Below, in pieces: positions 16,180 to 57,606 of a DNA stretch of 64,000 nt. The notes beneath the pieces were generated by a model that saw nothing but the letters and a program-made list of their open reading frames with translations, did not search any database and was not told the DNA's origin. Origin of the DNA: Candidatus Ozemobacter sibiricus (GTDB taxonomy: Bacteria; Muiribacteriota; Ozemobacteria; Ozemobacterales; Ozemobacteraceae); NCBI GenBank assembly GCA_003327425.1, contig QOQW01000013.1, positions 61,351 to 125,350 of the forward strand. The letters run 5' to 3'. A program made the translations under genes and the position numbers. Numbering within the stretch: the first letter of the stretch is position 1; the number at the start of each line of letters is the position of its first letter.

Positions 16180-19100
16180 GGCTTCAACCTCGCAGCGAAG
16201 GGCGGGAAGGGTGGTCGCCACCACAGACAGTAGGCGGCGGCGACGAGCATGCCGATGAGCGTGCTCCACCAGATCAGGGCCTGCCACCAGGCCAGGAGGC
16301 GTCCCCGCTTGACCGAGAACTTCCCAGAGGTCGGGTCGATCCGGCTGACGGCGGTGAACCCGGCGGCATCGACCAGGGTCACCTCGAGCGACCCGGCCGC
16401 GGTAGCGGGCGGCAGCAGCACCAGCATCCCCGACCAGGGATCGTAGCGGTAGGGCACCGCCGTCTGGATCTGCAACCCCGGGCTCTCTTCCTGAACCTGG
16501 AGGGTGACGGCGCCGGCCGGCACCTGCCAATCGGGGCCGGGCGCCCGCCAGGTCACCTGCGGCGGGGTGACATCGACCGCGAAGGTGGCCACCGCCACCT
16601 GGACATGGCCGAACCGGTCCTCGGCACAGAGCAGCACCCGGTGCGGCCCGGGCCGGAAGCCGCCGGCCGGCTGCACGCGCACCTGGCCGAGCACCGGATC
16701 GTAGGAGAAGACATCGGTCACTTCGAGGTCGCGGCTCGGGCCCAGCAGATGACCATCGAGATCGAGCAGCAGCCGGCGCGGGTCGAGACCGGTGCCCCGG
16801 TCTTGCACGCCCAGGATCAGCGGTTGGTCGATCCGGTCGAGGGCGCGGCCGGGGGCCGGCTGTACCAGCCTGATCTCGGGCGGTTCGACATCGGTGCGGA
16901 AATCCCAGGTCTGAGCGACCTTCTTTCCGCCACGATCTTCGAGCTGCACCTGCACGCGATGCACCCCCGACGGCAGGCGGCGTGGCGGGTGGGCCACCAG
17001 CCGCCCGGCGACCGGATCGAACCGCACGGTCAAGCTGGCGCCGTCGAGGGTCAGGTGCGTCCGCTCGGGGTCGATCCCGCCGCCCTCGTCGGCCGCGACT
17101 ACGCTGATGACCGGGCGGCCCACCCCGAGGGCGGTACCCGACGCCGGCAGCACCGAGGTGATGCGGGGCGGCTCGTTGTCGATGACGAACCGCCAGCGCC
17201 GCACGCTCTCGTTCTCGACCACATCTTGCACCCGCAAGGTGACGATATGCGCGCCGGGCGTCAGATCGGCCGGCGGGGTGTAGGTGAGCGTAACCTCGGT
17301 CGGATCCTCGGTCGAGAGTTTGAGGTGGGCCCGATCGGCCGGCATGCCGTCGATGTGCAGGGCGATCGGGTTCTCGGCGCCCTGGGCGATGCCGGTGCCT
17401 TTGTCGATGAGCCGGGCCTGGATGACCGGCCGGAAGGTCTTGACCGTGCTGTCGGGAGCGGGCGACAGATCGCAGATGGTGGGTGGCGTCCGCTCGGAGA
17501 CCACAACGTAGGTGGTGATGTCGCGGGCGGGGGCGATGATTTCCCCCGTGCCGGTGCTGATCTCGATATCCTCGACGATCTCCCAGCGCCCGCGCTTGCC
17601 GGTCGGGGTCCGGCCCTCGGCCTCATCGCGGGTGGCAGGCACCCATTTGACCACCTTGAGGCGCGAGGCGAGGTAATCGACGTCGGCCACCGCCTCGGAG
17701 CCCAGCTCGGGCACTTTCAGACGCAGTTTGGGTGCAAGTTCCTTCAACTGGCTGAGATCGGCCTGGGTGGCGCCGGCTTTCAGCGACAATGGCTTCTCGG
17801 TGTTGACGTTGAGTTCGATGCGGTAGGGCGTGCCGATCACCTCGAGCGAGGGCGGCAAGGGGTCGGGTTCGCGCGGGTCGACCGGCGCCGTGGCCGCGGC
17901 CGGCCGCGGCCGGTCGGGGATGTTCTCATAGCGGATGAAGAAGAGGTTCTGGTAGCCGCCCACCCGTTGGAATTCGCCCGGCCCCTTGGGCACCACGGGC
18001 ACCAGCCCGGCCGGGATCTCGAGCTGCACGAGCTGGTCGGCGCTCTCGACGCGGCCGCCGGTCTCGACCGCGACCGGCTTCGCCTCGAGGCTGGTGAGCT
18101 GCTGCACCTCGTTGCCCGCCGGGTCGGGCGAATGGACGACGATCTCGACCCGGCCATCGAACTGCCGCAGAATCTGGGGCAGCACCCGCCCCCGCCGCGG
18201 CGGTCCGCCGCCCGGCATCTGGATCTCCTGCAACTGGCCGGAACTGCCCCCGAGATCGACCTCCATCGTCTTGCCGCCCGGGAAGCGCAGTTCGATCCGC
18301 ATCTCGGGCGGGGCCTCCTCATCGGCCAGGATGATGAAATCATCGCCGCTGGGCACCGCGGTGATCTTCAGCTCGGGCTTGATGCTGTCGATGAAGATCG
18401 ACTTCGTTTCGGAAACCTCGCTCTCGTTGCCCGCCAGATCGAGCTGGGTGACGGCGTAGAACCAGTTGCCGTCGACCGGCGGGTCATCGACGATGATCGG
18501 AGCGTAGATGCCAGTCTTGACGGGGATCAGCCCTTCGCGGGTGGTGATCGGCGTCAGCGAGCGGTACAAATTGAAGCTGCGCGGGTCGCCAGGCCCTTCG
18601 GTCCATTTGATGACGGCGATGCCGAGCTTCTTCTGCTCGACCTGCAACCCGATGGGCGGCTCCGGCGGCACGCTGTCGATGGTGAAGACCCCGCCCGTGG
18701 TGGCATAGGATTCGAGGGTGCGGGCGATCTCGCCTTCTTCATCGAGCTTGCGCTCATATTTGCGCGGTTCGATGGCGGTGCTGACGTTGCCGATGCGATC
18801 GACCCCGCGGTAGCGGAAGCGCGCCGAGGCGCTGGCGATGCCATGGGGGATCTCCATCCAGCCCGACCAGAAGGCGCCGAACCCCCGCAGCGTGATGGGC
18901 TGCCAGTCGTCGCGGCCGTCGATGGCCCAGGCCAGCTCGGGCGGCTGGGCCAGCTCGCCGAGCGTCTCGACCGTCACCTCGATCGGCCCGCCGCGCACCG
19001 GCGCCACCACCACCTGGTTGGCGAGAGCATCGATCCGCATCGTATTGATGCTGGGAATGCGGATGCGCGCTTCGGGCCCGACCGTATCGATCCAGAAGGT

Positions 19101-22100: not shown

Positions 22101-25100
22101 GGCGGGCGGAGCAGCAGCCAGCGGCTGCAGGGCCACCGGCAACGGTGAACCGCCCTGCGGCGCGATGAGCACCTCGGGTGGCGCCGCTAGCAATTCATTG
22201 GGAGTGACCCGCACCGTCACCGGCCCGGTGCGCAGAGGCGCGGGCGGGTCGAAGGCCAGGCTCAGCCAGGGCGGCGTGGTATCGACGGTCAGGGTGGCCC
22301 CTTCGGTGATGACCGTTCCCGGCAGCCCTTCTTCAGAAAGGCCGCGGAACAGGAACCGCCCGACCCCGTCGCCGGTCTTCTCGTCGACCGCCAGAGCGCC
22401 GGTGAACCGGCTCTTGGAGCCGGCCTCGAGCGTCAACGCCACCGCCAGGGGAGCCCGCCCGGCCGGTTCGAACCAGAGACTGGGCGGTTCGCGCAGGGGC
22501 ACCGTCGTCTCGACCCGCACCCGGCAAGCGCCGCGTGCCGGGCCGGGCGGTTCGACCCGCACCCTGGCCGCGGGAATCTTCGCCCCGATCGTCAGCGGCG
22601 CGATGGCCGGCGAGTCGCTGACGTTCCCGGCCGCATCGACCGCCACCACCGCGAGATGGATGGCCGGCCAGGGCTGCGGCACGAAGGAGCAGCGCGGTTC
22701 GGTCAGGCCGTCGGCGATCAGGGTCACGCCGGGGGTGGTCGACCCCGCCCCGGCCGGAATCGGCTCCGGCGAGGCCAGCACCCGCCAGGTGACCGGCTCG
22801 CCCGCCGGCTGCCCGGCCAGCGGGGCGACGGCGGCCGCGGCCGGCGCCGAGCCGCCGCCAACCGTGCCGGCGCCCGGCACCCAGGTCAGCTCGACCGTCG
22901 CGCCGACCTTGACTTCGACGCCGGTCGGGGCGGCAGGCGGCACCGCGTCGGTCACCACCGCCACGGCGGGCGTCAGCGAGCCGATATGTCCGGCCCGGTC
23001 GCGGGCCGTGGCGGCATAGTACCAGGTGCCGTCGCGCGGCGGCCGGTCGGTGAACGCGGCGTCTTTCAGGTCGGCGGCCACGAGCTGGGCGCTTTCCGAG
23101 GCGGTGAACGGCCGCTCGCTGCGGAAGACCAGGTACCGGGGTTCGCCTTCCGGCTCGGTGGCGGGCGGCGCCCAGGTCACCCGCACGACGCCGCCCGGGC
23201 CGGGCACGGCGGTCAGCCGGTTGAGCGGCGCGGGCGGCGTCGAGTCGAGCAGCAGTTCGGCCTCGGCGCCCAAGGGGCCAGCCGCATTGCCGGCCAGATC
23301 GGCCGCTTGCAGGCCGAACCGCACGTCGAGGTCGGCCCCGAGATGCGAGGGCAGATCGAGGCTTCCCTCGAAGAGCGTCGGCCCCCGGCGAGTCAACGGA
23401 ACGGGACGCGGCACCTCATCGGCTTCGAGACGCCAGGTGAGCCCCACGTCGTCGCGCACCGGTTCGTCGAACTCGAGCGTGAGGCTGAGCCGGCCCGGGC
23501 GCACCACTTCGCCCAGATCGCGCCAGGTCACGCTCATCAGACCGTAGATGGGAATCATCCGGCGGCCGAACGTCGGCGCGAACCTGATCTTCGCCACCGG
23601 CGGCGTCAGGTCGTACGACAGCGTCGCGGTGCGCGCCGGCGGGCTTTCGTTGGCGGCGGCATCGAGGGCGTGCACGGCGTACACGAGGTCGCCGGTCAGA
23701 CGCGGCAGGTCGTCGACTTCCCGCAGCGGCCCTTCGTAGATCTGGTCGAGCTGGCGGCGACCATCGCGCAACCGAGCTTCGCGCACCACCCGGTACCGAT
23801 CGACCGCTTCGAGGCGCGGCTTCTGCCAGGCGATGCGCACCTGCCCGCCCGGCAGCAGGGTCGCCTTGACCTCTTCGGGCGGCGGCGGCGGGGTGGTATC
23901 GCTCGAGCCGGTGCGTGGCTGGCAGGCCACTCCTTCATTGCCGGCCAGATCGGTGGCGCTGACCCGGTAGGCGAACTCGCTGCCCAACGCTTCCCGATCA
24001 TGGTACTGCACGTCGCGCACCTCGGTGGCGAGGCGGGCCGCCGGGGTCTGCGGCACCGCATCGGAGGCCCCCCGGTAGACCGAATAGAAGGCGGGGCTTT
24101 CTTCGAGCGGGGGCTTCCAGCGCAGCAAAATGCCTCCGCCCGGGCCCGGCCCGACCACCAGATCAAGGGGAGGGCCGGGCGGCACGCCGTCTTTGAAGAA
24201 CCGCTCGCCCTCGCGGATGCGCGTGCCCTCGCGCCCGAACAGATCGCGGCCCGTCACCGCGAATGTGACCTCGCCATCGGGGGTATCGGTGGCCAGGAAC
24301 AGCACGCCCCGCCAGGCATTGTTGCGATAATCGAACGTCAGAGAAGCCAGCACCTGGGGCTGCCCGCCGGGCGGAGTCCAGGTCAGGCGGGGGGCCTCGG
24401 GCAGCGGCTCGTCGGCCTGCACGAAGACAGTGACCGTGCCGATCGCGCTGGCATGGGGCGGGTCGCGCCAGATCTTCCAGGTGGGCGAGGCGGTATCGAG
24501 CACGTATGAGGAATAGTGCAACGTCAAGCCGGCGTTCCCTTCGAGGTCGATCGCCTCCCCCCGGAACTGCAGGAACCCGTCGGCCGCGGTGGCCGGCACC
24601 CGGAACGCCGCCGTGAAGAAGAGAGAGCCCGAAGCCCACTCTACCGCCCCGGTGGCGGTGGAACCATCGGCCAGCACCAGCGTCAGCGACGGCGGGCCGG
24701 CCAGCCGTTCGCTCAGGGTGGCCAGCACGGTGAAGGCGCCGGGCGGCAGCCGCCCTTCGACCGGGGCGGTGGCCGGCACCGGCGGCAGCGGCTCGGGGCG
24801 CAGATCGGCGATGACCAGCGCGGCCCGGGCCGGCGTGGTATCGACGACGATCCGGGTCGTGGCCAGGGGCCCGCGGTTGCCGGCCCGGTCGCGAGCCGCC
24901 ACCCGATAGTCGTAGACGCCGTCGCCCGGCGCATCATCCGCCCGCCGCACGGAGGCGGAAACGGTGGTGAGCGGGCGGGCCCCGACCGGCAGTTCCTGGC
25001 CGGCCGGCGTCCGGAAGACCTCGTAGCCTGCCACATCGGCCTCGGCCACGGGTTCCCACCGCAGCGTCACCGTGCCACCCCGTCGCGTGGCCGCCAGGTT

Positions 25101-28100
25101 GCCTGGCGCCGCCGCGGGCGGGGTGCGGTCGGTGTCGACCGTCACCGGCGGCGACCAGGGCCCCTGGTTGCCGGCCGCATCGAGGAAGGCGAGGCGGTAT
25201 TCCCAGGCGCCCTCGGTGGGCGGCTGATCGACATGGGCGAGCTGGTCGACCCGCGTCAGCCGGGCGACTTCCGAGGCGGGGCCGCCGGGCGCCGCCCGTC
25301 CCAGCACGTACCCGGCCACCCCGGCCTCGGCCGGCGGCGCCGCCCACCCCACCTCGACCCGGCCCTGATCGCGGGCCTGGGCGATCGGCGGAGCGCGCGG
25401 CGCCGGAGGCGGCACGGTGTCGACGGTGAACGGCACGGGCGGCGCCGCGGTCCCATCGGCGCCGGTGGCTTCGAGCCGGGCCGGCCCCTGCGGGGCCCCG
25501 GCTGCGATGCTCAGCTCGCCAGACCAGGTCTGCGGGCCGGCTGCCTGCAGGGCGATCTCCTCGCGCCGCCCGTCGGCCCAGACCACCGTCAGCCGCGGCG
25601 GGCCGACCGCCGGGCCGCTGACCAGCACGCGCTGCCGCCCCGCTCCCAGCGCCCCCGTCCGCTCGAGGAGGATGGTCAGCCGGGCGGTCTGCAGCCGGGT
25701 CGTGCCGATCACGAAGGAGGTCTCGGCAGCGGCAGCCACCGGCTGGCCCCGCCGATCCTGCACGAATTCCGGCGCGAAGCGCACGGTCACGGTTTCCCCA
25801 TCGGCGAACGGACGCTCCGGCCGCAGCACCAGGGCATACCCATCGGGCTCGGCCGCCGCCTGACACGGCACCGCGCCGCTCTGGCTGCCTCGCACCTCGA
25901 TCCCGCCCGGGCGATAGGAAGCGGCCTCGATCATTCGCGTGAAATTCAGGCGAATGGTCGTGGTCGGATGCACACCCATCTGCCCCGACCAGGGCTGCAC
26001 GCCCGTCAGCCGCAACGGCCATCGATCGGCCCCAGCCGGGAAGGTGGCGACCAGCGAGTAGGCACCGACAGCGCCCACCCCATCGGCAGCCGAGACCCGG
26101 ATCTGATACTGGCCGGCGGGCAGGGTCAGACGCTGCCGTTCGGGGAACCCGGGCCCGCCCCCACAGGTGGAATCGATCGCGATTCCGCGCTGGCGCGGCA
26201 GATCGAGCAGGGCGAAGACCTTCCAGAGCAGGGCGTCCTGGGCCTTCCCGCCAGGATTCTGCATATCGACGGCCAGCGTCCCCTGGCCCCAGCGCCGGAA
26301 GACCGTCAAGGCCCGCGTCGTCGTCGCCGCCTGGTGCAGCACCACCGGCGCGAACCCGGCCGCCGCCCAGTCTTCGATCCAGCCGCTGGCATCAAGCCAC
26401 GGCAGCCCCTGCAACGGGCCGCCGGTCGGATCAGGCATCCCCGCCGCCGCGATGGCGGCCGGCACGGCCTGATTGGCCTCCCAGAGCTGGCAGAGACGCA
26501 GCCCGAACCAGCGCTTCTCGGAATCGGCGGTCAGCGCCTCGATCTCGCCGAGCTGCACTTCGCTGCCGTGCCCGTAATTCGAGGTGACCACCACTCGCAG
26601 CGCCCGCAGTGCGGTCGGCATGATCGGAATCACATGCGGGCCATCGGCCGCCGGCAGCGTCAGGCTGGCCAGCAGCGTGAACGGGCCATGCTCGCCAACC
26701 GTCGAGCCGTACAACTGCACATCTCGGGCCCGGGCCTCGCGCGTCTGGGACGTCGCATGCACCACCAGCCGATCGATCGGCCCCGGCACTCTGTCAGGGA
26801 AGACCAGGACGATCTCCTGCGGAGTCGCCACGCCGCCCGAGACGCAGCACCAGCCGCGCGCCCCATTGTAATGCTCGTTGCCGGCCATGCTCAGGCCGTC
26901 GATCAGGCGGTCAGGCTTCCAGGTATCGCTATACTGACTGGTGAAACTGGCGACCCGACCGCCACGCGCCTGGCGCAATTCGCTGAACGACACCGACGGC
27001 GCGGTCAGCAGCACCCGGCCCCCACCCTCGACATACTTCTGGATCTTCGCCTGCACGGCGTTCGAGAACAGATCGAACTGGTCGGGATCGGTCACCCCAT
27101 CGATGATGACCGCCACGTAGTCATCGAGGCCATCCCAGACGGTGGCGGCCCGCGACGCGGTCCAGGTCACCCGCTCGACCTCGAAAGGCAGGCCGATCCG
27201 CTCGTGGAGGTTGTGGAAGTCGGCCAGGCCTCCGACCAGATACAGCACCCGGGCCCGCCCGCCCCGCGTCGGATGTTCCGGAATGACATGCACCTGCGCA
27301 TCGAGATCTTCGGTCCCGACCGGATCCAAGGTCAGATCGAGGGTGCCCGTGCCCATCTCGACCACGAAATGATCGACATCGCCGTCAGGAAACACGCCGC
27401 CGGTCACCGGCACCCCGCTCTCCAGGCGGACCGCATCGCCGGGGCGGTCGTCGGGCTCATGCTGCACCGGCAAGGGAACGCGTTGCAGGGCCAACCGATA
27501 GGGAACGGTCGCCTGGTTCGGCGGGAAGGCATCGGCCACCCCCAGCCAGTACAGCCCGGTCGTGGTGGCCAGGGAATGACCGGCTTCGACCCCACCGAAG
27601 CCGACACGGCGCGAGCCGTCGAACGTTCGCGGCAAAGCCTGCTCATCGGCTTGGGATTTCACCGACAGCGAAGGATCGAGCGTGTAGGTCAGGGGCTCCA
27701 GCCACAGCCCGAGCCGGGTGGGCCGGTCGACCGCCACCCGCCACCAATCACGATCGCCGGCCGGGAACAGCTCGCCCTCGACGGTATCGCCGACCGGCAG
27801 CGGCACCGCCGCGCCGGGCGTCTGGTTGGGCTCGGCCGTGGACGTGGCCGCCCAGAAGGTCGGTCGCAGCACGAATGGCGCCGACGCCCACCGCCCTTCG
27901 GCCGCGGGCCGCACGGTCAGGCGATACCGACCGGCGGCCGACGCCCGGAACCATCCCCCGCCGCGCAGCGTCTGCAACTGGGCAGGGGGTACATCAAGGA
28001 GGTTGGCGATCTTCCAGGCGGCGGGCCGGACATTGTCGCGATACCCCAGCTCCTGCGTTTCCAGGATCAGGGTTCCCCGGCCCAAGGTTCGGCGCACCGT

Positions 28101-31100
28101 AATGCCGAGCTGCTCGGGATCGGCCGCATCGACGTAGGCCGCGGTGAAGCCGGCCTCCCGCCACCCCACCCAGCACCCGTTGCTCTCCGAGACCGGCCAG
28201 CCATTGGGATTGCCCCGCGCCCGCCCTGAAACGAGAGGGTCGCTGTCGCTGACCGCCTGCACGGTGTCATTGCGCCATTGCGACTGGTGGAAGACCCCGA
28301 ACCATCCGGTCGGTGCATCGGGGCCATAGAACTCGCAGTCGCCCAGCCGGACCGCCTGGTTGCCGACGCTGGCCAGCACGGTCAGGCGAACGAACCGCGC
28401 CGCCACCGCCGGGAAGCGGGCTTCGGTCATCCGGCGCCCGGGCCTCGCCTCGAACTCGCCCACCGGCTGGAACGGCCCGTCGGGCCCGGCCATCGTTACC
28501 TCGACCCGGAACCGGCGCACCTGCGCCGCCGGGTCGGGGCTCGCCGTCTGCACCACGATCCGATCGAGCACCACCGGCCAGCTGCCGGGCAGGCCGAACA
28601 CCACCGCGTGCGGCGGCGGCGCGCCGGCATAGGCCCCCTGCGAACCTTCGATCTCATAGCGCCCATCGAGCAGCTCCGGCAATCCGGTCCACGCCGGGCT
28701 GCCAGAGGCGATCCAGCCACCCCGGACGGCCGCGTTCAGTGCGAACGTGAAGAATTGAGGACAGACCACGACCACCCGCTTGCCCTGCTCGACCAGCGCT
28801 TGCAGCGCTCGATGGGTCTCGGGACGGTCGAGGAAGAACTGGCAGGGATGCGTGATCCCCTCGATGATGATGGTGTCGAACCGAGCAGCTTGCGAAGCCG
28901 CCCAGGAGACGGCGGGGGACGTCAGCACCGGCAGCCGCAGGGTCTGGGTGCCGGTCCAGGCTTCGAAGTCGACCGCGCCCAGCAAAACGTTCCATGAGGT
29001 TTCGAGTTCGACCAGCAGCGGCGCCCCCGCCGCCAGATCGGGCACCGGCCACGCCCAGTCGCTCCATTCCTCCCATGAGCGCAGTCGCCAGCCGGTCACC
29101 GCCTCCCCGTTCACCTTCACTTTCAGAGAGCGCTCATCGAGCGAAAGACCGCGCATGATCAACCGCCCTTCGCGAGTGGCGACGGGAACGGTCAGACGCG
29201 CCGACCAGGTGGCGCCGACCGGCGGCGGGAAGTCCCGCCGAGGAGAAGCGCCGAGATGCAGGCACGATTGCAACCAGAGCGGTGCATCTTCTTGCAGGCG
29301 CAGCGAGACCAGATGCTCGTTGGGCACCGCGAACAGATCGTAATCGCGCCGGCCGCCGACCAGACACAGCACCCGGCTCGGAGAAGCGACCTGCTCATGC
29401 CAGGTCAAAGCCAGATCGAGCCGATCGGGCGTGCCCCCTTCCAGGCCCAGCAAGCCGGCCCCCGGAACATCGATGGTGTACGCGGCCCATGCTCCTGCCG
29501 GCACCAACGGCGACGACAGCGGCGTCGCCACATCGACCACCGGCTCCGACGTCGTGGCGACGGTCGGTTGCCACCTGGCCCAGGCCGCCGCCAGCCAGTC
29601 GGGGGGCCCAGCGGCCTCCGGCTTCGCCCCGGCCTCGGCCACCGACCACTGCACGCCCGGGCCCGACCAGGCATGCAGACGGAAGACGGCTTGCAACGGC
29701 GCGCGGGCCGCCCGGTCGCCGCCCGACCGCACGACCGCATAGTATCGTGCTCGCCGGGGGAGCACCACCCGGCCCGCCTCGCGCGAGCGATTCGTCTGGT
29801 CGCAAACCTTCAGCGGCGCGGCCGCCGCATCCGTGCCGGCCTCCCTGATCTCGACGATGGGGTCGGTGTGGCCGTCGAGGGCGGTCAGATCGAGTTCGAG
29901 CAGCCCCGGCCCGATGTCGCCCAGGTCGATCCATTCACGATCGCCCTCGGGGTAGAGATGGAAAGCGAAGCTGGCGGGCAGGCTCACCGTGCGGGCCTGC
30001 GTGGCCGCCGCGTGGTCGAACGAAGGCAGGCCGACCGTCGCCGTTTCGGGCCAAAGCCCAACGGTACGCACGATCGCCTGGTAGGGCGTCATCGACTCGG
30101 CATTGTGGAATTGGTAGCCATAGCCGTTCTCGTTGATCCCATGGCCGCCATCCATGACCCGGAAGACGAACGACGCCGGTGCCTGCACCGTGAAACGCCC
30201 CACCAGAGGATCGTCGACCGGCGCGGTGAAGGTCTCGATGGGGTTGCCGTTGGCATCGAGCACCTCGAGCCGGGGGGCCACGGGCCCGGCCAGATCGGGA
30301 ATCTCGATCTCGAGCATGGTCGGACCGCTTCCTGGCACCTCGACCCGGAAATGATCGATATCTCCCGCCGGGAAGATGGTGTCGGCCACGGGCTGGCCCA
30401 ACGTCACCAGGAACGCCTGATCAGGACTGCCATGGGGAGCGGTCGGGGTGACGACGGGCGTATAGGTCACCCGCAGGGAATACGGCCCCGCCCGGTTGTT
30501 GTAGTGATAACTGTAGTTTTGCTCACCGGTTCCGGTTCCCCCATCAATCACTTCGAGCCAGTAGCGGCCGGGCTCTTTGAGCGACGCTTCGAGCCTGACC
30601 ACATTGCTTTCGGGCCCCATGGCCGAGCCGATCTCCTGTTGCTGGGGATTGAACAGGCGCAACCGGGGGCAGGTCGGGCCCAGAACGGCATCGCATTCGA
30701 TCTGCAGCCGCCCCCGGCCCGGCGTGGGCACTTCGAAGGTGAACCAGTCGTTGTCGCCAACCGGGAAGAGGTGCGCCATCATACGTTCGCCCAAGGTCAG
30801 CGACGTCGCCGAAGCCATGGTGTCGTTGGGCTCGCCCGGATCGGGCACCTCCTCGAACCGCACGAACCCTCGATATTCGAGCGGGGAACAGACGTTGTTG
30901 TAGTGGTAGGCGTAGCCCTGCTCCCCTTTCCCGCGCCCGCCGTCGATGACCCGCAGCCGGTAGGCGCCCGAAGCCACCGCCGCCACGAGCACTCCGGGCT
31001 CGCCCCGCGGATGATCGGCCGCTTCGAGATCGCGGCCGCTTTCGTCGCGCAACAGCAGATGAAGGGCGATCATTTCCGAGGGGTGGTCGACGCGAATCGT

Positions 31101-31748
31101 GACCCACCCTCGTTTCCCGGCCGGAATGGTGAAGCGGTACCAATCCTCGTCAGCCGTGGGGACCAGTCGCCCCGTGAAGGCGCGGTTCAGCTCGATCGGG
31201 CTGGCCGCGTCTGGCGACCCATTTGGCTCGTGCTCATCGGGCAGGGGGGTAACCTTCACGGTCAAACGATAGGGGGCCGTGGCCTCCTGGTTGTTGTAGT
31301 GATAGGCGTATCCTGCTTCGCCGATCCCGTGCGGGCCATCCTGCAAAAGAATGGTGAGACTGGCCGGGTCGCCGAGCCAGGCTCGATACCAGAACGGCTG
31401 CCCCGGCGGCGCTTCGTGGGTGAAAATGGTCTGGCCTTTGGCATCGTACCCGACAAGGCGGGGGTTGATATTGGAAGCCACTTCGTCGGCAGTCACCTCG
31501 ACGGCGATCGGCACCCCGTTGCCCGGGACGGGAATGCGGTAGTAATCGTGATCTCCGACGGGGAAGATCGTTCCGATGATGGGAACGCCCGAAGCGACCA
31601 CCGCGGCCTTTTCGAGAGCGTCGTTCGGCTCGAACTGGTCGGGGGCAGCTGGCAGCGGGCCACACAGGCCACCGACCAGCGCCAACAGCAGGCCCAGGAA
31701 CAGCCGCAGTCCCTGTCTGGCAACCATTCCCATGACTCGTCGCCGCAT
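16176..31748 (-). CDS. giant multidomain surface protein (~5190 aa): signal peptide, 7 PPC (pre-peptidase C-terminal)-like domains, two [GATase1/ThuA-like + F5/8 type C discoidin + ~90-aa] modules, long array of fibronectin type III domains, three C-terminal bacterial Ig-like domains and a C-terminal transmembrane anchor
   Basis: Five tandem repeats starting at residue ~48 have EPND...G.IFP.GD.D.Y.F.VP ... DGG.G.GE.GY.YHYNN...PY.L.V signatures (e.g. FEPNDALEKAAVVASGVPIIGTIFPVGDHDYYRIPVP, GEPNDTMASATSLTLGERMMAHLFPVGDNDWFTFEVP), with two more at residues ~1315-1500. The discoidin-type endings are ARFVRLTVLASVGNQAVRLGDCEFYG and ALRVVVTSNYGHGSEVQLGEIEA. There are many fn3-like units (PPAAAPGNLAATRRGGTVTLRWEPVAEADVAGYEVFR...). 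The C-terminal Ig-like repeats are homologous to those of the 3453-aa protein. The last residues ALIWWSTLIGMLVAAAYCLWW form a TM helix. The ATG at 31748 (MRRRVMGMVARQGLRLFLGLLLALVGG, signal peptide) is preferred over the TTG at 31781; ATG 31733 is also possible. Confidence 0.85.
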   Translation of the reverse strand: MRRRVMGMVARQGLRLFLGLLLALVGGLCGPLPAAPDQFEPNDALEKAAVVASGVPIIGTIFPVGDHDYYRIPVPGNGVPIAVEVTADEVASNINPRLVGYDAKGQTIFTHEAPPGQPFWYRAWLGDPASLTILLQDGPHGIGEAGYAYHYNNQEATAPYRLTVKVTPLPDEHEPNGSPDAASPIELNRAFTGRLVPTADEDWYRFTIPAGKRGWVTIRVDHPSEMIALHLLLRDESGRDLEAADHPRGEPGVLVAAVASGAYRLRVIDGGRGKGEQGYAYHYNNVCSPLEYRGFVRFEEVPDPGEPNDTMASATSLTLGERMMAHLFPVGDNDWFTFEVPTPGRGRLQIECDAVLGPTCPRLRLFNPQQQEIGSAMGPESNVVRLEASLKEPGRYWLEVIDGGTGTGEQNYSYHYNNRAGPYSLRVTYTPVVTPTAPHGSPDQAFLVTLGQPVADTIFPAGDIDHFRVEVPGSGPTMLEIEIPDLAGPVAPRLEVLDANGNPIETFTAPVDDPLVGRFTVQAPASFVFRVMDGGHGINENGYGYQFHNAESMTPYQAIVRTVGLWPETATVGLPSFDHAAATQARTVSLPASFAFHLYPEGDREWIDLGDIGPGLLELDLTALDGHTDPIVEIREAGTDAAAAPLKVCDQTNRSREAGRVVLPRRARYYAVVRSGGDRAARAPLQAVFRLHAWSGPGVQWSVAEAGAKPEAAGPPDWLAAAWARWQPTVATTSEPVVDVATPLSSPLVPAGAWAAYTIDVPGAGLLGLEGGTPDRLDLALTWHEQVASPSRVLCLVGGRRDYDLFAVPNEHLVSLRLQEDAPLWLQSCLHLGASPRRDFPPPVGATWSARLTVPVATREGRLIMRGLSLDERSLKVKVNGEAVTGWRLRSWEEWSDWAWPVPDLAAGAPLLVELETSWNVLLGAVDFEAWTGTQTLRLPVLTSPAVSWAASQAARFDTIIIEGITHPCQFFLDRPETHRALQALVEQGKRVVVVCPQFFTFALNAAVRGGWIASGSPAWTGLPELLDGRYEIEGSQGAYAGAPPPHAVVFGLPGSWPVVLDRIVVQTASPDPAAQVRRFRVEVTMAGPDGPFQPVGEFEARPGRRMTEARFPAVAARFVRLTVLASVGNQAVRLGDCEFYGPDAPTGWFGVFHQSQWRNDTVQAVSDSDPLVSGRARGNPNGWPVSESNGCWVGWREAGFTAAYVDAADPEQLGITVRRTLGRGTLILETQELGYRDNVRPAAWKIANLLDVPPAQLQTLRGGGWFRASAAGRYRLTVRPAAEGRWASAPFVLRPTFWAATSTAEPNQTPGAAVPLPVGDTVEGELFPAGDRDWWRVAVDRPTRLGLWLEPLTYTLDPSLSVKSQADEQALPRTFDGSRRVGFGGVEAGHSLATTTGLYWLGVADAFPPNQATVPYRLALQRVPLPVQHEPDDRPGDAVRLESGVPVTGGVFPDGDVDHFVVEMGTGTLDLTLDPVGTEDLDAQVHVIPEHPTRGGRARVLYLVGGLADFHNLHERIGLPFEVERVTWTASRAATVWDGLDDYVAVIIDGVTDPDQFDLFSNAVQAKIQKYVEGGGRVLLTAPSVSFSELRQARGGRVASFTSQYSDTWKPDRLIDGLSMAGNEHYNGARGWCCVSGGVATPQEIVLVFPDRVPGPIDRLVVHATSQTREARARDVQLYGSTVGEHGPFTLLASLTLPAADGPHVIPIMPTALRALRVVVTSNYGHGSEVQLGEIEALTADSEKRWFGLRLCQLWEANQAVPAAIAAAGMPDPTGGPLQGLPWLDASGWIEDWAAAGFAPVVLHQAATTTRALTVFRRWGQGTLAVDMQNPGGKAQDALLWKVFALLDLPRQRGIAIDSTCGGGPGFPERQRLTLPAGQYQIRVSAADGVGAVGAYSLVATFPAGADRWPLRLTGVQPWSGQMGVHPTTTIRLNFTRMIEAASYRPGGIEVRGSQSGAVPCQAAAEPDGYALVLRPERPFADGETVTVRFAPEFVQDRRGQPVAAAAETSFVIGTTRLQTARLTILLERTGALGAGRQRVLVSGPAVGPPRLTVVWADGRREEIALQAAGPQTWSGELSIAAGAPQGPARLEATGADGTAAPPVPFTVDTVPPPAPRAPPIAQARDQGRVEVGWAAPPAEAGVAGYVLGRAAPGGPASEVARLTRVDQLAHVDQPPTEGAWEYRLAFLDAAGNQGPWSPPVTVDTDRTPPAAAPGNLAATRRGGTVTLRWEPVAEADVAGYEVFRTPAGQELPVGARPLTTVSASVRRADDAPGDGVYDYRVAARDRAGNRGPLATTRIVVDTTPARAALVIADLRPEPLPPVPATAPVEGRLPPGAFTVLATLSERLAGPPSLTLVLADGSTATGAVEWASGSLFFTAAFRVPATAADGFLQFRGEAIDLEGNAGLTLHYSSYVLDTASPTWKIWRDPPHASAIGTVTVFVQADEPLPEAPRLTWTPPGGQPQVLASLTFDYRNNAWRGVLFLATDTPDGEVTFAVTGRDLFGREGTRIREGERFFKDGVPPGPPLDLVVGPGPGGGILLRWKPPLEESPAFYSVYRGASDAVPQTPAARLATEVRDVQYHDREALGSEFAYRVSATDLAGNEGVACQPRTGSSDTTPPPPPEEVKATLLPGGQVRIAWQKPRLEAVDRYRVVREARLRDGRRQLDQIYEGPLREVDDLPRLTGDLVYAVHALDAAANESPPARTATLSYDLTPPVAKIRFAPTFGRRMIPIYGLMSVTWRDLGEVVRPGRLSLTLEFDEPVRDDVGLTWRLEADEVPRPVPLTRRGPTLFEGSLDLPSHLGADLDVRFGLQAADLAGNAAGPLGAEAELLLDSTPPAPLNRLTAVPGPGGVVRVTWAPPATEPEGEPRYLVFRSERPFTASESAQLVAADLKDAAFTDRPPRDGTWYYAATARDRAGHIGSLTPAVAVVTDAVPPAAPTGVEVKVGATVELTWVPGAGTVGGGSAPAAAAVAPLAGQPAGEPVTWRVLASPEPIPAGAGSTTPGVTLIADGLTEPRCSFVPQPWPAIHLAVVAVDAAGNVSDSPAIAPLTIGAKIPAARVRVEPPGPARGACRVRVETTVPLREPPSLWFEPAGRAPLAVALTLEAGSKSRFTGALAVDEKTGDGVGRFLFRGLSEEGLPGTVITEGATLTVDTTPPWLSLAFDPPAPLRTGPVTVRVTPNELLAAPPEVLIAPQGGSPLPVALQPLAAAPPAPAGAGEGAAPLVYVGSFTLPATLPDGQAFLRVSARDLAGNVGTRADPDRVFIDNHPPRPPIDLRAVARPHGRVFLTWQPAPFQARSGPDDVRRWRIYRADRPGVATAAAVRAGEAVGPAFEDGGIPRDGTWYFAVTAVDQAGWESLPSSWVAGLADRRPPPVPAAPTAVPGDEGVTLTWHDPAPAAGTPPDRYEVWVSWHDPVTRQTVEEKVWGPATGGRALHRPLRGGDFSYRVRALDHLDHASAFSPPTLVHYERQAPAATLAFRPPPPWATGSVAVTLETTRALAATPQLTWQWFDDLGEPGASATAIVLQGSGTTWQGRFVLPEAPSLRRIDFAWRGQVTVAGKTYTGTEFLGPASFAIDRAGPEGRLLFTAPDLPRRDRQAILRAGRYPFVLELDEPPARPPTLAFESASGKRVNLPLTRQTDRRWEGVLLIDGATGDGVGQFFLQAVDAAGNQGTSLAEGGTVVVDTTPPGRVARLRAVAFPGGRVRLDWTPPLTATGRPDASANRFRLYRSSQEILDVRGLTPIQSVARTLGTFDEPKGAREVYYAVVAVDEAGNEGPVSLSVMTTIDREPPPPPRHVKAAITETGVVKVSWEPPPGPAPTFYNVYLETFPIVSTAGLTPNARGVPFTYLYGTPNDDGRYYFAVTAVDATLNESAPSESVEVDYRRTLPIASFTIHPDIWLRNGRYEVDLTTSKPLVEPPLVEVKHEKGLVFPLRFAGAGSRWRATLTIDDQLPEGTCGFLFTGKGEGNTVGREISRGPLFHIDRTAPLPPSHLKVVPDDANTPGAVRLTWNLPKLPDRPTEVPHLYRIYRSERPMASLAGQAPVQVVRVQYENMDEYIHHDVPPHDGTWYYCVTSGDLAGNESSPSAVVSVVSSTKVPRLVVRLFTEVGGPVPVDRIGGGPCRVEVRSSQPLASLTLHWYEVTRDEKLAGVVASRTAVPMTERAGGPASEAGLLWEGRLVIDQAAGREVEAAFEARAVGRDGTVGTFITAGRTFWIDTVGPEARIRIPSINTMRIDALANQVVVAPVRGGPIEVTVETLGELAQPPELAWAIDGRDDWQPITLRGFGAFWSGWMEIPHGIASASARFRYRGVDRIGNVSTAIEPRKYERKLDEEGEIARTLESYATTGGVFTIDSVPPEPPIGLQVEQKKLGIAVIKWTEGPGDPRSFNLYRSLTPITTREGLIPVKTGIYAPIIVDDPPVDGNWFYAVTQLDLAGNESEVSETKSIFIDSIKPELKITAVPSGDDFIILADEEAPPEMRIELRFPGGKTMEVDLGGSSGQLQEIQMPGGGPPRRGRVLPQILRQFDGRVEIVVHSPDPAGNEVQQLTSLEAKPVAVETGGRVESADQLVQLEIPAGLVPVVPKGPGEFQRVGGYQNLFFIRYENIPDRPRPAAATAPVDPREPDPLPPSLEVIGTPYRIELNVNTEKPLSLKAGATQADLSQLKELAPKLRLKVPELGSEAVADVDYLASRLKVVKWVPATRDEAEGRTPTGKRGRWEIVEDIEISTGTGEIIAPARDITTYVVVSERTPPTICDLSPAPDSTVKTFRPVIQARLIDKGTGIAQGAENPIALHIDGMPADRAHLKLSTEDPTEVTLTYTPPADLTPGAHIVTLRVQDVVENESVRRWRFVIDNEPPRITSVLPASGTALGVGRPVISVVAADEGGGIDPERTHLTLDGASLTVRFDPVAGRLVAHPPRRLPSGVHRVQVQLEDRGGKKVAQTWDFRTDVEPPEIRLVQPAPGRALDRIDQPLILGVQDRGTGLDPRRLLLDLDGHLLGPSRDLEVTDVFSYDPVLGQVRVQPAGGFRPGPHRVLLCAEDRFGHVQVAVATFAVDVTPPQVTWRAPGPDWQVPAGAVTLQVQEESPGLQIQTAVPYRYDPWSGMLVLLPPATAAGSLEVTLVDAAGFTAVSRIDPTSGKFSVKRGRLLAWWQALIWWSTLIGMLVAAAYCLWWRPPFPPFAARLKP

Positions 31749-31897
31749 CGAAGGACCCTTTGTGAAATCAGACTGCGCCAAACATCATCACGAAGCCCTG
31801 AATGCCATCCCAGCGATGGCCTCGGTACTATCGCGCTTATTTTCGCCCGAAAAGCGCCTCAATGCAATAGCGGGTCCCAGCCGACCGGGCCCCCCCT

Positions 31898-31969
31898 GAA
31901 GACCCCATAAAAACAACTGGGGGAGCGACAGCCTGTCCGAAGCCCCCACCAGGGGCCAGCGGCCCCTGG
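31898..31969 (-). terminator. putative rho-independent terminator downstream of the Fe-S protein gene / upstream of the giant operon
   Basis: There is a perfect 9-bp inverted repeat CCAGGGGCC-AGC-GGCCCCTGG (31949-31969). On the minus strand a second GC-rich imperfect hairpin (GACAG-G-CTGTC core) and an AGTTGTTTTTAT tract follow. The geometry is not canonical. Confidence 0.4.
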
Positions 31970-33068: not shown

Positions 33069-34472
33069 TCAGAAGGCGCTCCCGACCTGGGCGTTGATGA
33101 ACGCCATCGTCTCGGGAATCTTGCCCTGGGTCAGGCCATGGATCCGTTCGAGGTTGGGATAGGCGCGCAGCCAGCGGTCCGGTGTCTCCAACAGGTGGGT
33201 TTCATATTCCACCAATCGGGTGAGGGAGGGATTGCGCCCCACCGCGCTGTCTTTGATCCGGCGCAAGAACGCGCGGAACTCATCCTTCCCTTGCGGGCGG
33301 GTCGGGAGAACCGCTCCGATCCGGTAGAGGTCAATGAGTTTCAAAATCGTCTGCAGCTGGACCTTCCCGCCTTTGTAGCGAGCCAGATCTCTCTGGAGCA
33401 GGCTGTAATAGTAATACCGCGCCTGGATGAGCGAACCGACGAAGTATTCGTAGATGATGCGGAACATGCCAAAATCCTGGAGAATCGCACCACCCAACTG
33501 CGCCATGCTCTGCGGATTGGCCGCCAACCGACCTTGCTGTCGCAGCACGTCGAACTGCGGCACGAGATACGCCACCACCTGAAAGCAGGTCTTGGCCAGA
33601 TCGTACCAGGCCTTGGCCACTTCCAATCGCTTCTCGTACTGGCGGGCCAGATCGATCGACGGGACCCGGCTCAACTCCGTGCGCAACTGACGGATCTTCT
33701 CTTCCTGGGTACGGAAATAGTCGGATGACACGAAACCGCGAAGCACCAGCGCAATGCGGCCCAACGCCCGCAGGGTTTCCACATTTTCGCCCAGGTCGGC
33801 GGCGATCTGGGCCAAGCTGGCGCCAGCCCGCCCCAGAGCGGCAGGAATCTGCGCATCGATGGCCGCTTCATCGACCGTATAGGCCAGATTGATTTTCCTG
33901 GGAGCGGCCGGCGAGAACAACAACAGCGAGGTCTGGGCTTCGCCCTGGCCGGTCTGAGCCGGCCACTGGAAGGTCAACCCGCAGTTGACCAGATTGCGCA
34001 GCTCGGAATCGCCCGAAGCCGCCAGCCGTTCGCCAGCCAACCGGAAGCGGAAGCGACGGATGGATTCATACAAGGGTTTCATCGATGGATCGAGCGTGCC
34101 ATCGACATTCGGATCGATCACCCCCCAGGGGGGGCGGCGATCTTCGACCATGGAGAAGAAGACCGACCGTCCATCGGTGACATCCTGCCACCCGCCGGAG
34201 GAAGAGGTGTCGACTCCCAGGGTTTCTATGCCGTAGGGGTTGATCATCAGCTCTTCGATCAGATCTTCGGATACCTTCTGGGATAGGATGACCGCCTGAA
34301 GGTGTTCCGAGGTGAAGGTCACCTCTTTGCGGCCAGAGCGGATGAACGTCAGCAAGGTCGTCCCGATCAACGCGCAGAGCCCCACCGCCACCAGGATCTC
34401 GACCAGGGTGACCGCCCGGCCGCGACCAGGAATTCGTTTGGCCCTGGAATTACCAGTCGGGATTCCCATCAT
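33069..34472 (-). CDS. pseudopilin/minor-pilin-like protein (467 aa) with N-terminal prepilin-type hydrophobic segment (GspK-like size)
   Basis: The N-terminus MMGIPTGNSRAKRIPGRGRAVTLVEILVAVGLCALIGTTLL resembles the prepilin class-III G-(F)TL(I/V)E motif. Its start overlaps the upstream stop as ATGA (34469-34472). Confidence 0.5.
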   Translation of the reverse strand: MMGIPTGNSRAKRIPGRGRAVTLVEILVAVGLCALIGTTLLTFIRSGRKEVTFTSEHLQAVILSQKVSEDLIEELMINPYGIETLGVDTSSSGGWQDVTDGRSVFFSMVEDRRPPWGVIDPNVDGTLDPSMKPLYESIRRFRFRLAGERLAASGDSELRNLVNCGLTFQWPAQTGQGEAQTSLLLFSPAAPRKINLAYTVDEAAIDAQIPAALGRAGASLAQIAADLGENVETLRALGRIALVLRGFVSSDYFRTQEEKIRQLRTELSRVPSIDLARQYEKRLEVAKAWYDLAKTCFQVVAYLVPQFDVLRQQGRLAANPQSMAQLGGAILQDFGMFRIIYEYFVGSLIQARYYYYSLLQRDLARYKGGKVQLQTILKLIDLYRIGAVLPTRPQGKDEFRAFLRRIKDSAVGRNPSLTRLVEYETHLLETPDRWLRAYPNLERIHGLTQGKIPETMAFINAQVGSAF

Positions 34473-35074
34473 CGGAGTCCTCCCAGGTTCATCAACCCGA
34501 TGTGGCCAAGGAATTGGAACTCGTTCCGATCTTGAACCACGGTCACATTCACCTGCACGGAATTTGGCGACAGACTGGTGAAGGAGAGAGAGCGCACCGA
34601 TTCGAGCAGGACCTTCTCGTTGGACGCATTGTACGCCCCGGAATAATCGGTACGATAGGCCAGCAGGCGATACACCGGAACCTTCAGCCGTTGGGCCAGA
34701 GGATCGTTCGGCTCGAGGTAGAGGATGGTCACCCGATTGGTGATGTCTTTGAAAATCAAGTAGGGAAGGGTTTCCCCCAGCACGGGGCGAACGAGGTCGG
34801 TGCCCTCGCGAATGAGGGCCATGGTCTGGTCGAAGGCGCGACGGGCTTCCAATTGCAACTGGACCTGCTGGCTGAACGTCCGTTGGGAGAGGCTGAGATG
34901 CTGGATCAATCGAACCCCCACCGCCCCCAGGATCATCATGATGGCCAGCCCCACCATGACCTCCACCAGGGTCCAGCCCTGGGAAGGAGGTAGGTTGCAG
35001 CCCAAGGGCCGCCTTTCATGCCCATGCGCCCAAGACCAGAGAAGCGAGCGCTGAGACCACGGCGGCCGCTTCAT
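34469..35074 (-). CDS. prepilin-type N-terminal cleavage/methylation domain protein (type II secretion / type IV pilus pseudopilin-like)
   Basis: The SQG|WTLVEVMVGLAIMMILGAVGV segment fits the prepilin peptidase site (G at -1, E at +5) followed by a hydrophobic helix. The ATGA overlap with the upstream gene is at 35071-35074. Confidence 0.6.
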   Translation of the reverse strand: MKRPPWSQRSLLWSWAHGHERRPLGCNLPPSQGWTLVEVMVGLAIMMILGAVGVRLIQHLSLSQRTFSQQVQLQLEARRAFDQTMALIREGTDLVRPVLGETLPYLIFKDITNRVTILYLEPNDPLAQRLKVPVYRLLAYRTDYSGAYNASNEKVLLESVRSLSFTSLSPNSVQVNVTVVQDRNEFQFLGHIGLMNLGGLR

Positions 35075-36570: not shown

Positions 36571-36910
36571 TATTTTGACCTCCTGCTTAGTAAACCAGGG
36601 GGAAGGTCTGGAAGTATCCTCAGTTAAGACATAGCACGAAAAATCCCTTACTGGGAAGACCGATCGCCAACTTCCTCCAGTCATTCTGAGCATTGAAACC
36701 CCCTTTTGGTGTCAGTTCTTGCCCAGGGTGACAGCTCGCTTCGGGTTTTTGTGACCAGGGCGGGAAAAAGCCCGTCGTCGGGCCGGTTGTACGCGAGGCT
36801 GGTCCGCCCTGGCCATGCCGCCGCAGGGTGCGCGGGGGAGGAACGCCCGCGGCTGGTCGATCGGATGCCCAGCGGCAACCGGGTTCGCAGGCTCCTGGCC
36901 TCCTCGCCCA

Positions 36911-54424: not shown

Positions 54425-54478
54425 CGATACTCTCCTTTTTTCCGACGATAGGGCCGCCTGGCAACCCAGGCCAGCGCC

Positions 54479-57157: not shown

Positions 57158-57606
57158 TGTCTATCAGCCTCCGTTTGAATGTCTTGCTCGACATCGAATA
57201 CCCGAGGGAGACGATCTCACCTCGTTCACTTCAGGGGCGTAGCTCAGGCGAGCCCCCAGAAGATCGTCATCGACCTGGCCATGCCGGCCATATGGCGCGG
57301 CCAACGGCTCTGGGAGCGCAAACACGATCGATCTTCGCCACCATTCCAAAATGGATGAAATCGAGGTATCCTGATTCCTGGTGGAGCCTCCATTGGCTCC
57401 GAGGGCCGATCGGCGATTTGATCGTCCCGCGAGAAAGGCATACGGCATGGGCATTCAGATGCTTTTGCAGGCGATCCGTGCGAGAAACCCTGTCGCGATA
57501 TGACTGACCGGTTTCCCTCCCCCAAAGGTACCGCTGACTGGTTGGTCAATCAAGCCCATGCCGAAGGCTTCCGCCCCTACCCCTGATTCGAGGAGGATCC
57601 TGCCCC

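Follow-up and report, generated by a model that had tools for sequence, protein, structure and literature searches.

A 64,000-nucleotide stretch of the genome of Candidatus Ozemobacter sibiricus (contig QOQW01000013.1, positions 61,351 to 125,350, hereafter the window) contains a single uninterrupted open reading frame (ORF) of 5201 amino acids, whose head is built of domains nested inside one another. The head, at residues 47-1922, contains eight β-sandwiches of the pre-peptidase C-terminal (PPC) or collagen-binding domain (CBD) type, six of them intact and two split. The split ones frame a duplicated module, in which an α/β domain of ~200 residues, itself split by a discoidin/CBM32 domain, breaks into the PPC domain after its first ~65 residues. 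This nesting of a discoidin domain in a class-I glutamine-amidotransferase-like (GATase1-like) domain, and of the latter in a PPC domain, is clean and rare. A preliminary description of this DNA had named the folds correctly, but it misread their connections, arranging a GATase-like segment, a discoidin domain, and a ~90-residue segment in series. The positions of the features are given in Table 1, where residue i starts at nucleotide 31781-3(i-1).

A duplicated module nested at three levels

We searched 120-residue pieces of the first 2100 residues against the rest of the protein (self-BLAST). Residues 958-1311 are colinear with residues 1538-1916 along five segments of 26-36% identity (E 6e-4 to 9e-9), which confirms the internal duplication proposed in the preliminary description. 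The two copies are thus real, but the limits proposed for them (~28325..28904 and ~26534..27164) were wrong. The module extends over residues 802-1267 and 1509-1866, or 740-1312 and 1438-1922 when the PPC halves are included, and copy 2 reaches ~500 nucleotides below position 26534. The α/β pattern begins right after the N-terminal half of the PPC domain, with RVLCLVGG (803) in one copy and RVLYLVGG (1511) in the other, well upstream of the "FDTIIIEG…" noted previously. The discoidin/CBM32 domain enters directly after strand β4 of the α/β domain and its "nucleophile elbow".

The inner level of the nest is revealed by the relatives of the module (retrieved proteins are designated by P and contigs by L). 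The first 88 and the last 108 positions of the module profile are adjacent, with no discoidin domain between them, in P0020, P0016, P0141, P0088, P0134, P0074, P0062, and P0135. In P0020 this arrangement occurs twice, at residues 74-161 plus 166-274 and again at 406-494 plus 498-604. Since the two α/β halves are contiguous in these relatives, the discoidin domain represents an insertion. What had been described as a "shared ~90-aa segment" is not a separate part of the module: it is the C-terminal half of the α/β domain, found next to the N-terminal half in P0020, P0016, P0141, and P0088.

The outer level was tested with a hidden Markov model (HMM) of the PPC domain. The N-terminal half (profile positions ~3-65) ends at most 25 residues upstream of 18 of the 28 α/β domains in the family. 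Segments 1268-1312 and 1875-1922 of the window protein score 11.6 and 8.5 bits at positions 84-118 of the profile, for a best score of 4.3 bits among 1000 control segments from the stalk. When the halves of split unit B are joined, they give one match over positions 3-117 at 44.0 bits, compared with 37.9 bits for the N-terminal half alone, and none of the 1000 controls reaches this value. This clear result was obtained with an HMM in which the tail insertion described below was treated as an insert state; with an earlier HMM that kept the insertion inside the profile, the joined halves scored no better than the controls.

The AlphaFold2 model of residues 1438-1922 has a predicted local distance difference test score (pLDDT) of 67 and a predicted template modelling score of 0.63, with a pLDDT of 70-92 in the α/β core. 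Its elements follow one another as four β-strands, a β-α-β-α-β-α-β series, a β-sandwich, four strands with two helices, and three final strands. The ColG collagen-binding domain 1nqd matches the PPC part of the model over 102 of 111 residues (2.1 Å, fold-search score 12.2). This match must draw on both PPC halves, because together they make up only ~100 residues.

The innermost domain has the discoidin β-sandwich fold and is homologous to solved CBM32 domains, in agreement with the F5/8-type-C discoidin identity assigned to it previously. The module profile matches CBM32 domains of known structure with an E-value of 4e-9 (7jnb), and the discoidin part of the model retrieves discoidin and CBM32 domains in the fold search (scores 12-14). 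Taken singly, the two discoidin copies obtain 15.4 and 13 bits in Pfam, and the discoidin domain of the homologue P0022 passes the Pfam threshold with 53.3 bits. The CBM32 domains of Clostridium perfringens ZmpB, NagH, and NanJ are among those matched by the module profile. The discoidin of the window protein differs from them in being inserted in a loop of the α/β domain, rather than appended, and in scoring below the Pfam gathering score.

Between β1 and β3, the α/β domain of copy 1 has an extra β-rich insert of ~140 residues (822-960, nucleotides 28902-29318 on the reverse strand). It is kept in L001, P0015, P0017, P0019, and P0023, and is absent from P0002. A profile of six sequences of this insert gave weak matches to the GH31 α-glucosidase 5x7o (E 0.011) and the β-galactosidase 1yq2 (E 0.16), and also to the cycloisomaltooligosaccharide glucanotransferase 3wnl (E 1.0). 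We take the matched stretches of these three enzymes to be CBM35-type or GH2 sugar-binding β-sandwiches. On these profile matches, the insert may be a third nested β-sandwich.

The whole module with its discoidin domain is represented by ~9 of 1.84 billion cluster representatives in a profile search, two of which are proteins of 4684 and 5024 amino acids from other samples. A first search with copy 1 had retrieved a single orthologue, the partial Ozemobacteraceae protein P0001 (46% identical). We then scanned one genome per species, with an alignment of two module sequences as the query, and found L001 (CALLCO010000318.1), a contig of a Candidatus Ozemobacteraceae metagenome-assembled genome (MAG). 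On this contig the same ~2100 amino acids are encoded without interruption of the frame, with 81% identity to the window protein. P0002, P0015, P0017, P0019, and L001 all retain the architecture, which at least six proteins from different samples share.

These data also bear on whether the repeats could result from assembly or gene calling, i.e., from collapsed or chimeric repeats or from a fused pseudogene. The gene is very long, repetitive, and derived from metagenome-type sequence, and its homologue P0002 is apparently split into three gene calls, as one might expect of an artefact. However, the repeat copies are just 27-44% identical at the protein level, so divergent that they cannot come from mis-assembly, and the frame is open throughout 15.6 kb. 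Moreover, an independent MAG contig, L001, reproduces the ~2100 residues of the head free of stops, and the proteins of 4684 and 5024 amino acids have the same architecture. We therefore regard the repeats as real and an artefact as extremely improbable.

On the contig of P0002 (L002), two overlapping gene calls, of 374 and 2163 amino acids, come after the gene of this protein and have Big_13/Fn3 domains (L002 10001-23412). Together with it, they probably correspond to one giant gene broken by frameshifts. Translation of the next called "gene" (L002 24178-25823) gives a repeat whose period is ~79 amino acids.

The α/β domain also occurs un-nested in other very large proteins: P0141 (4125 amino acids; residues 1056-1857, three copies in tandem), P0062 (6578 amino acids; residues 2267-2457), P0074, P0088, and P0135. 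An automated check found no PPC half directly upstream of the α/β domain in these five proteins. The α/β domain is thus found alone, within a PPC domain without discoidin, and with discoidin. These intermediates make up a natural series in which to study the tolerance of proteins to domain insertions and the construction of binding heads.

The PPC units and their tail loop

The preliminary description had proposed five tandem units of ~130 residues at residues ~48-705. Self-BLAST confirmed them (residues 47-712); any two of them match with an identity of 27-44%, and the E-values range from 1e-9 to 3e-24. Two more units had been placed at residues ~1315-1500. One of them is an intact unit (1313-1437), but the other is only the N-terminal half of a split unit (1438-1508), whose C-terminal half is found at 1875-1922. 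The split unit composed of residues 740-801 and 1268-1312 had been overlooked, and the count rises with it from seven to eight.

The Pfam PPC model (PF04151) matches the N-terminal region as a whole with 34.6 bits, above its cut-off of 25.9, whereas units taken singly remain under this cut-off, with at most 20.7 bits. We built a PPC profile on 43 units from the window protein, P0002, and PPC-rich proteins of Verrucomicrobia. Its matches to the ColG and ColH collagen-binding domains have E-values of 1e-15 to 7e-15 (ColH s3 7e-15) and cover positions 2-117/120. For unit 3 (residues 313-446), the AlphaFold2 model has a pLDDT of 89.5 and eight strands, and its best matches in the PDB by Foldseek are ColH s3 (3jqw) and ColG s3b (1nqd), with an E-value of 1.6e-8 and TM-scores of 0.7-0.8. 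Pfam, the profile, and the model all agree with the PPC identity suggested previously. The units are full-length β-sandwiches of the PPC or collagen-binding type, including the terminal Y-x-L-x-V strand.

In the profile alignment, the E-P-N-D and G-D-x-D motifs of the units align with the N-terminal region of ColG, which we take to bind two Ca2+ ions. Five of the eight units (1, 2, 3, 6, and split unit B) have the pattern E-x-N-D...D-x-D intact; in the remaining three (4, 5, and split unit A) it has degenerated. The claim that each of the five tandem units starts with E-P-N-D holds for units 1-3, but unit 4 has T-A-P-H-G in its place and unit 5 has lost the motif. By analogy with ColG, the PPC β-sandwiches are probably stabilised by Ca2+.

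The tail of the five tandem units, DGG.G.GE.GY.YHYNN, had been regarded as a non-canonical PPC ending. The alignment shows instead a canonical ending, G-x-Y-x-h-x-V-x-D … P-Y-x-L-x-V, to which units 1-4 add 12-13 residues in the loop that connects the last two strands. Aromatic and acidic residues abound in this loop. The tail is thus found in four of the five units for which it had been claimed. The insertion is missing from unit 5, which ends ...VVRSGGDRAARAPLQAVFRL, from unit 6, and from both split units. Across 15 motif-bearing units of five proteins, the D, G, G, and E of the pattern D-G-x-x-G-x-x-E are invariant. An N located 8-9 residues after the E and the Y of the last strand are almost invariant in these 15 units. 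The aromatic residues between the E and the N follow the pattern Y-x-Y-H-Y in the window protein and W-x-x-E-W in its relatives. In the model of unit 3, the insertion (unit residues 102-119) forms a loop of lower confidence (pLDDT 68-76).

Among the 163 proteins that we fetched (283,568 residues), the tail pattern is confined to the window protein and its orthologues P0002, P0015, P0017, P0019, and P0023. The insertion is found in none of the 193 PPC domains of 12 other PPC-rich proteins of this set. A homologue search with an alignment of the motif-bearing PPC units gave zero matches at E-values up to 1e-3. Judging from these sequence comparisons, the tail loop is specific to the family of the window protein within the set. 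In ColG, the strand preceding the position of the loop presumably carries the tyrosines that contact collagen. A reasonable guess, by analogy, is that the tail loop extends a ligand-binding face.

The collagen-binding domains s3a, s3b, and s3 of ColG/ColH (PF04151) are thus comparable to the units of the window protein in their β-sandwich fold and in the alignment of E-x-N-D and D-x-D with the Ca2+-site region of ColG. In ColG, s3a and s3b are also in tandem. The differences are nevertheless considerable. The window protein lacks a protease and has eight units, at the N-terminus instead of the C-terminus; four of them have the loop of 12-13 residues before the last strand, and two are interrupted by an insert of 360-470 residues.

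The α/β domain and its elbow residues

The α/β domain has a flavodoxin-like fold with a nucleophile elbow after β4. The best match in the fold search is the N-terminal GIFT domain of IFT52 (5fms, score 14.1 over 174 residues at 3.0 Å). It is followed by STM3548 (2gk3, 12.8), OST48 (6s7o_G, 12.7), a GATase1-like protein of Planctomyces (3rht, 12.1), the ThuA-like protein 1t0b (12.0), PabA (12.0), and the middle domains of GH42 enzymes (11.3-11.8). The closest structures (the GIFT domains of IFT52 and OST48, STM3548, and ThuA-like proteins) belong to superfamily members without catalytic activity.

Sequence matches are much weaker. A profile of 18 copies of the α/β domain, from which the discoidin insert was cut out, has its best PDB match in 2gk3 with an E-value of 0.01. 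The module profile weakly matches the DJ-1/PfpI structure 1u9c (E 0.11). DUF4350 (PF14258) matches 4 of the 18 sequences, with a best E-value of 2.9e-5; the two copies of the window are not among them. Other weak matches are to BPL_N, GLMA_2nd, and Glyco_hydro_42M, and ThuA matches one of the 18 (E 0.13). We take all these families to belong to the class-I amidotransferase-like superfamily. No model of Pfam is significant for the two copies in the window, and no Pfam family covers the domain in the α/β-only relatives P0135, P0134, P0088, P0074, and P0153. Searches with the GATase, Peptidase_C26, and DJ-1 models of Pfam and NCBIfam gave no match in the α/β domain at E-values up to 10, nor did the GIFT sequence models (ABC_transp_aux or related) match any of the 18 sequences at the same threshold.

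The agreement between the weak sequence matches and the fold search places the α/β domain in the class-I glutamine-amidotransferase-like or GIFT-like superfamily, without any curated family at the sequence level. Membership of ThuA (PF06283) was rejected at the sequence level, where it has a single match at E 0.13. Of the GATase1/ThuA-like assignment made initially, the fold stands, and membership of the ThuA family is not supported by sequence. Since the domain is also found in other giant proteins of 2000-6500 amino acids, defining its family would improve the annotation of giant proteins in candidate phyla.

The elbow was assigned from the strand order in the model, and not by superposition: β4 corresponds to RVLLT (1589-1593) and the elbow to the next residue. 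In copy 1 this residue is a Cys within a conserved C-P-Q in all six orthologues (window, L001, P0002, P0015, P0017, and P0019). The codon of the window residue, Cys1007, is at nucleotides 28761-28763 (reverse strand). In copy 2 it is Ala or Ser (Ala1594 in the window), and in other members of the family Arg, Gly, Ala, Ser, or His. The next residue after the elbow is a Pro in 18 of 18 copies. There is no invariant His across the 18 copies, nor within copy 1, in whose orthologues a nearby His occupies positions that differ by one alignment column. Close to the last strand, every copy-1 sequence has Q-E (1243-1244) as part of the motif [DE]-x-Q-E-[LV]-G-[YH]-x-x-N, which is lost from copy 2. Gln1009 is invariant in copy 1, and Glu1244 is invariant only in copy 1.

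From these alignments, the Cys-His-Glu triad appears incomplete in copy 1 and absent from copy 2. A functional glutaminase triad in both copies was therefore rejected, given Ala1594 in copy 2 and the lack of an invariant His. The preliminary description had suggested a check of the catalytic Cys and His, and the outcome is mixed: there is a Cys at the elbow of copy 1, but not of copy 2, and no conserved His. Because the residue at the elbow varies, no His is invariant, and the discoidin domain enters where the active site would be, the α/β domains are probably inactive as enzymes. They resemble in this the GIFT and non-catalytic class-I GATase-like domains (2gk3, 3rht, 1t0b, and DUF4350), which also lack a complete catalytic triad, and they resemble the solved GIFT structures. 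They differ from them in being nested in a PPC domain, in hosting a discoidin domain, and in being extracytoplasmic parts of a giant repeat protein, and because copy 1 keeps the elbow Cys.

An alternative is that copy 1 is an active enzyme or reactive site made of Cys1007 with Gln1009, Gln1243, and Glu1244, and that copy 2 is a degenerate decoy. The chemistry would be that of a Cys-dependent hydrolase or transferase, or a covalent attachment to a target, with the two inserted β-sandwich domains holding the substrate. The presence of the elbow Cys in all copy-1 orthologues and of a Q-E that is invariant in copy 1 and lost from copy 2 fits this proposal. It fits poorly with the mobile position of the nearby His, the lack of any amidotransferase, peptidase C26, or DJ-1 match in Pfam/NCBIfam, and the non-catalytic nature of the top structural matches. 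Furthermore, the discoidin domain is inserted beside the elbow, at the would-be entrance of the substrate, and other members of the family have Ser, Ala, Gly, Arg, or His at the elbow. We thus consider an active copy 1 improbable. A more specific version, in which Cys1007 would be a surface-displayed reactive site acting on a bound glycoconjugate or forming a thioester-type covalent link to a target, seems to us highly doubtful. If true, the head would be that of an adhesin of a new kind, working by catalysis or by covalent linkage.

Proposed role and genomic setting

The collagenase PPC domains bind collagen, for which the collagen-binding domains of ColG require Ca2+ (PMC6168687). GIFT domains (GldG, IFT52, and Wbp1/OST48) are presented as proposed sugar binders in a passage of PMC7226087 that cites Beatson & Ponting 2004. 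These two precedents are the reason to suggest a binding role. We favour, as a fairly likely reading, that the head is a multivalent adhesion head, binding glycans or polymers, stiffened by Ca2+, and carried by an Ig/Fn3 stalk, in which the α/β domains are non-enzymatic. The α/β domains would be rigid adaptors or scaffolds, possibly sugar-binding themselves, each presenting a CBM32 lectin domain at a distance from its PPC β-sandwich. Ca2+ would stiffen the PPC array, as in ColG. The PPC units, the family-specific loops, and the CBM32 domains would together bind glycans or polymers in a multivalent manner. The stalk of ~3200 residues, held in the membrane by the C-terminal helix, would project the head from the cell and allow adhesion to a surface, a matrix, or a partner cell.

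Several observations weigh against this proposal. The discoidin region scores 22.3 bits, under the gathering score of 28.2 of Pfam PF00754, and the confidence of the model of residues 1438-1922 is only moderate (pLDDT 67). The invariance of Cys1007 at the elbow of six of six copy-1 orthologues fits poorly with a purely structural role. The exposure of the giant protein at the cell surface is assumed, and a signal peptide together with a C-terminal transmembrane helix would imply a periplasmic location if the lineage has an outer membrane. Finally, the host organism is uncultured. The family of α/β-discoidin modules is small, and its function is drawn by analogy.

The protein might instead be mainly structural, as part of a surface layer, sheath, or matrix, with a head dedicated to self-assembly or to Ca2+-dependent contacts between proteins. 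Its very large size and repetitive Ig/Fn3 stalk are in line with such a role, as are the second giant ORF, of 3453 amino acids, close downstream and the retention of the PPC Ca2+-site motif in five of the eight units. However, CBM32/discoidin domains are typically glycan binders, the C-terminal helix suggests tethering rather than a lattice, and no S-layer or sorting-signal model matched. On balance, we regard a mainly structural role as unlikely.

For comparison, the adhesin of 7651 residues of Mobiluncus mulieris (PMC10619420) also has a very long stalk of Ig/Fn3-like repeats with distinctive binding domains at one end. It differs in the composition of the head and in its anchor, which in the window protein is a hydrophobic helix without a recognised sorting signal. 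The stalk of the window protein gave no sign of cross-linking motifs, although no search aimed at them was made. Giant adhesin-like proteins with exotic heads are common, and all three folds of the nest are already known. The three-level nest with its intermediates, the unannotated α/β family, and the family-specific PPC loop are new, none of them being described in the literature that we searched. This literature also contains no description of the architecture or of giant proteins in Ozemobacteraceae or Riflebacteria.

Beyond the head, residues 1922-5150 form a stalk of Ig-like and Fn3 repeats, with Big_5 followed by Big_13 and fn3 in Pfam. The C-terminal hydrophobic helix, read from the sequence, is a probable membrane anchor. 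Translation probably starts at M12, M17, or M19, and not at the TTG further upstream. Pfam scans revealed no peptidase domain in the 5201 residues. A scan of the head, the N-terminus, and the C-terminus with NCBIfam gave zero matches, and hence no sorting-signal or S-layer model.

Table 1. Features of the giant gene and of its product, with positions in the window and residue numbers of the protein.
Feature	Nucleotides	Strand	Basis or remark
Giant ORF, 5201 aa	16176..31781	-	N-terminal signal-peptide-like segment, putative binding head (47-1922), Ig/Fn3 stalk, C-terminal hydrophobic helix
Probable signal peptide, residues 12-46, MRRRVMGMVARQGLRLFLGLLLALVGGLCGPLPAA	31644..31748	-	Read from sequence
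PPC/CBD unit 1, residues 47-180, tail-loop insertion 148-170 (nt 31272-31340)	31242..31643	-	Self-BLAST, alignment
PPC/CBD unit 2, residues 181-312, tail-loop insertion 280-302	30846..31241	-	Best single-unit Pfam PPC match
PPC/CBD unit 3, residues 313-446, tail-loop insertion 413-435	30444..30845	-	AlphaFold2 model, Foldseek
PPC/CBD unit 4, residues 447-576, tail-loop insertion 544-566	30054..30443	-	EPND start decayed to TAPHG
PPC/CBD unit 5, residues 577-712	29646..30053	-	Degenerate; without tail insertion, without EPND
Split PPC unit A, N-terminal half, residues 740-801	29379..29564	-	HMM positions 18-65, weak alone
α/β domain copy 1, N-terminal part, residues 802-1012	28746..29378	-	β1-β4, Cys1007 at elbow, extra insert 822-960
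Discoidin/CBM32 copy 1, residues 1013-1158	28308..28745	-	Inserted after β4 of α/β domain
α/β domain copy 1, C-terminal part, residues 1159-1267	27981..28307	-	"Shared ~90-aa segment" of the preliminary description
Split PPC unit A, C-terminal half, residues 1268-1312	27846..27980	-	11.6 bits, HMM positions 86-118; 0/1000 controls as high
PPC/CBD unit 6, intact, residues 1313-1437, without tail insertion	27471..27845	-	Self-BLAST, alignment
Split PPC unit B, N-terminal half, residues 1438-1508	27258..27470	-	37.9 bits, HMM positions 3-62
α/β domain copy 2, N-terminal part, residues 1509-1598	26988..27257	-	Ala1594 at elbow position
Discoidin/CBM32 copy 2, residues 1599-1756	26514..26987	-	Model, fold search, profile
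α/β domain copy 2, C-terminal part, residues 1757-1866	26184..26513	-	Model, relatives
Split PPC unit B, C-terminal half, residues 1875-1922	26016..26159	-	Joined halves 44.0 bits, HMM 3-117
First stalk domain, Big_5 Ig-like, residues 1922-2023	25713..26018	-	Pfam
C-terminal hydrophobic helix, 27 residues, 5162-5188	16218..16298	-	Read from sequence

Two ORFs lie antisense inside the giant gene, at 24516-28229 (forward strand, 1237 amino acids) and 29256-31910 (forward strand, 884 amino acids). We did not take them for genes, because long ORFs are expected at the G+C content of the window (~70%). Downstream, an ORF of 761 amino acids separates the giant gene from the ORF of 3453 amino acids (3530-13891, reverse strand), which has FlgD_ig, CHU_C (a type IX secretion-type C-terminal domain), Big_13, and CarboxypepD_reg domains. 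Four ORFs are located upstream of the giant gene, at 33069-37466 on the reverse strand. One of them, of 201 amino acids (34469-35074, reverse strand), carries an N-terminal methylation motif of the prepilin type (N_methyl, E 6.6e-5), and Pfam gave no match for the three others. There is no similarity between the ORF downstream of the giant gene and the gene that follows P0002, whose neighbours are unrelated, and no conserved partner gene emerges from the comparison of the window with the P0002 contig. Further away, the G+C content at positions 54001-58000 is 0.54-0.58, compared with ~0.65-0.74 elsewhere in the window, and this region may be foreign or otherwise atypical.

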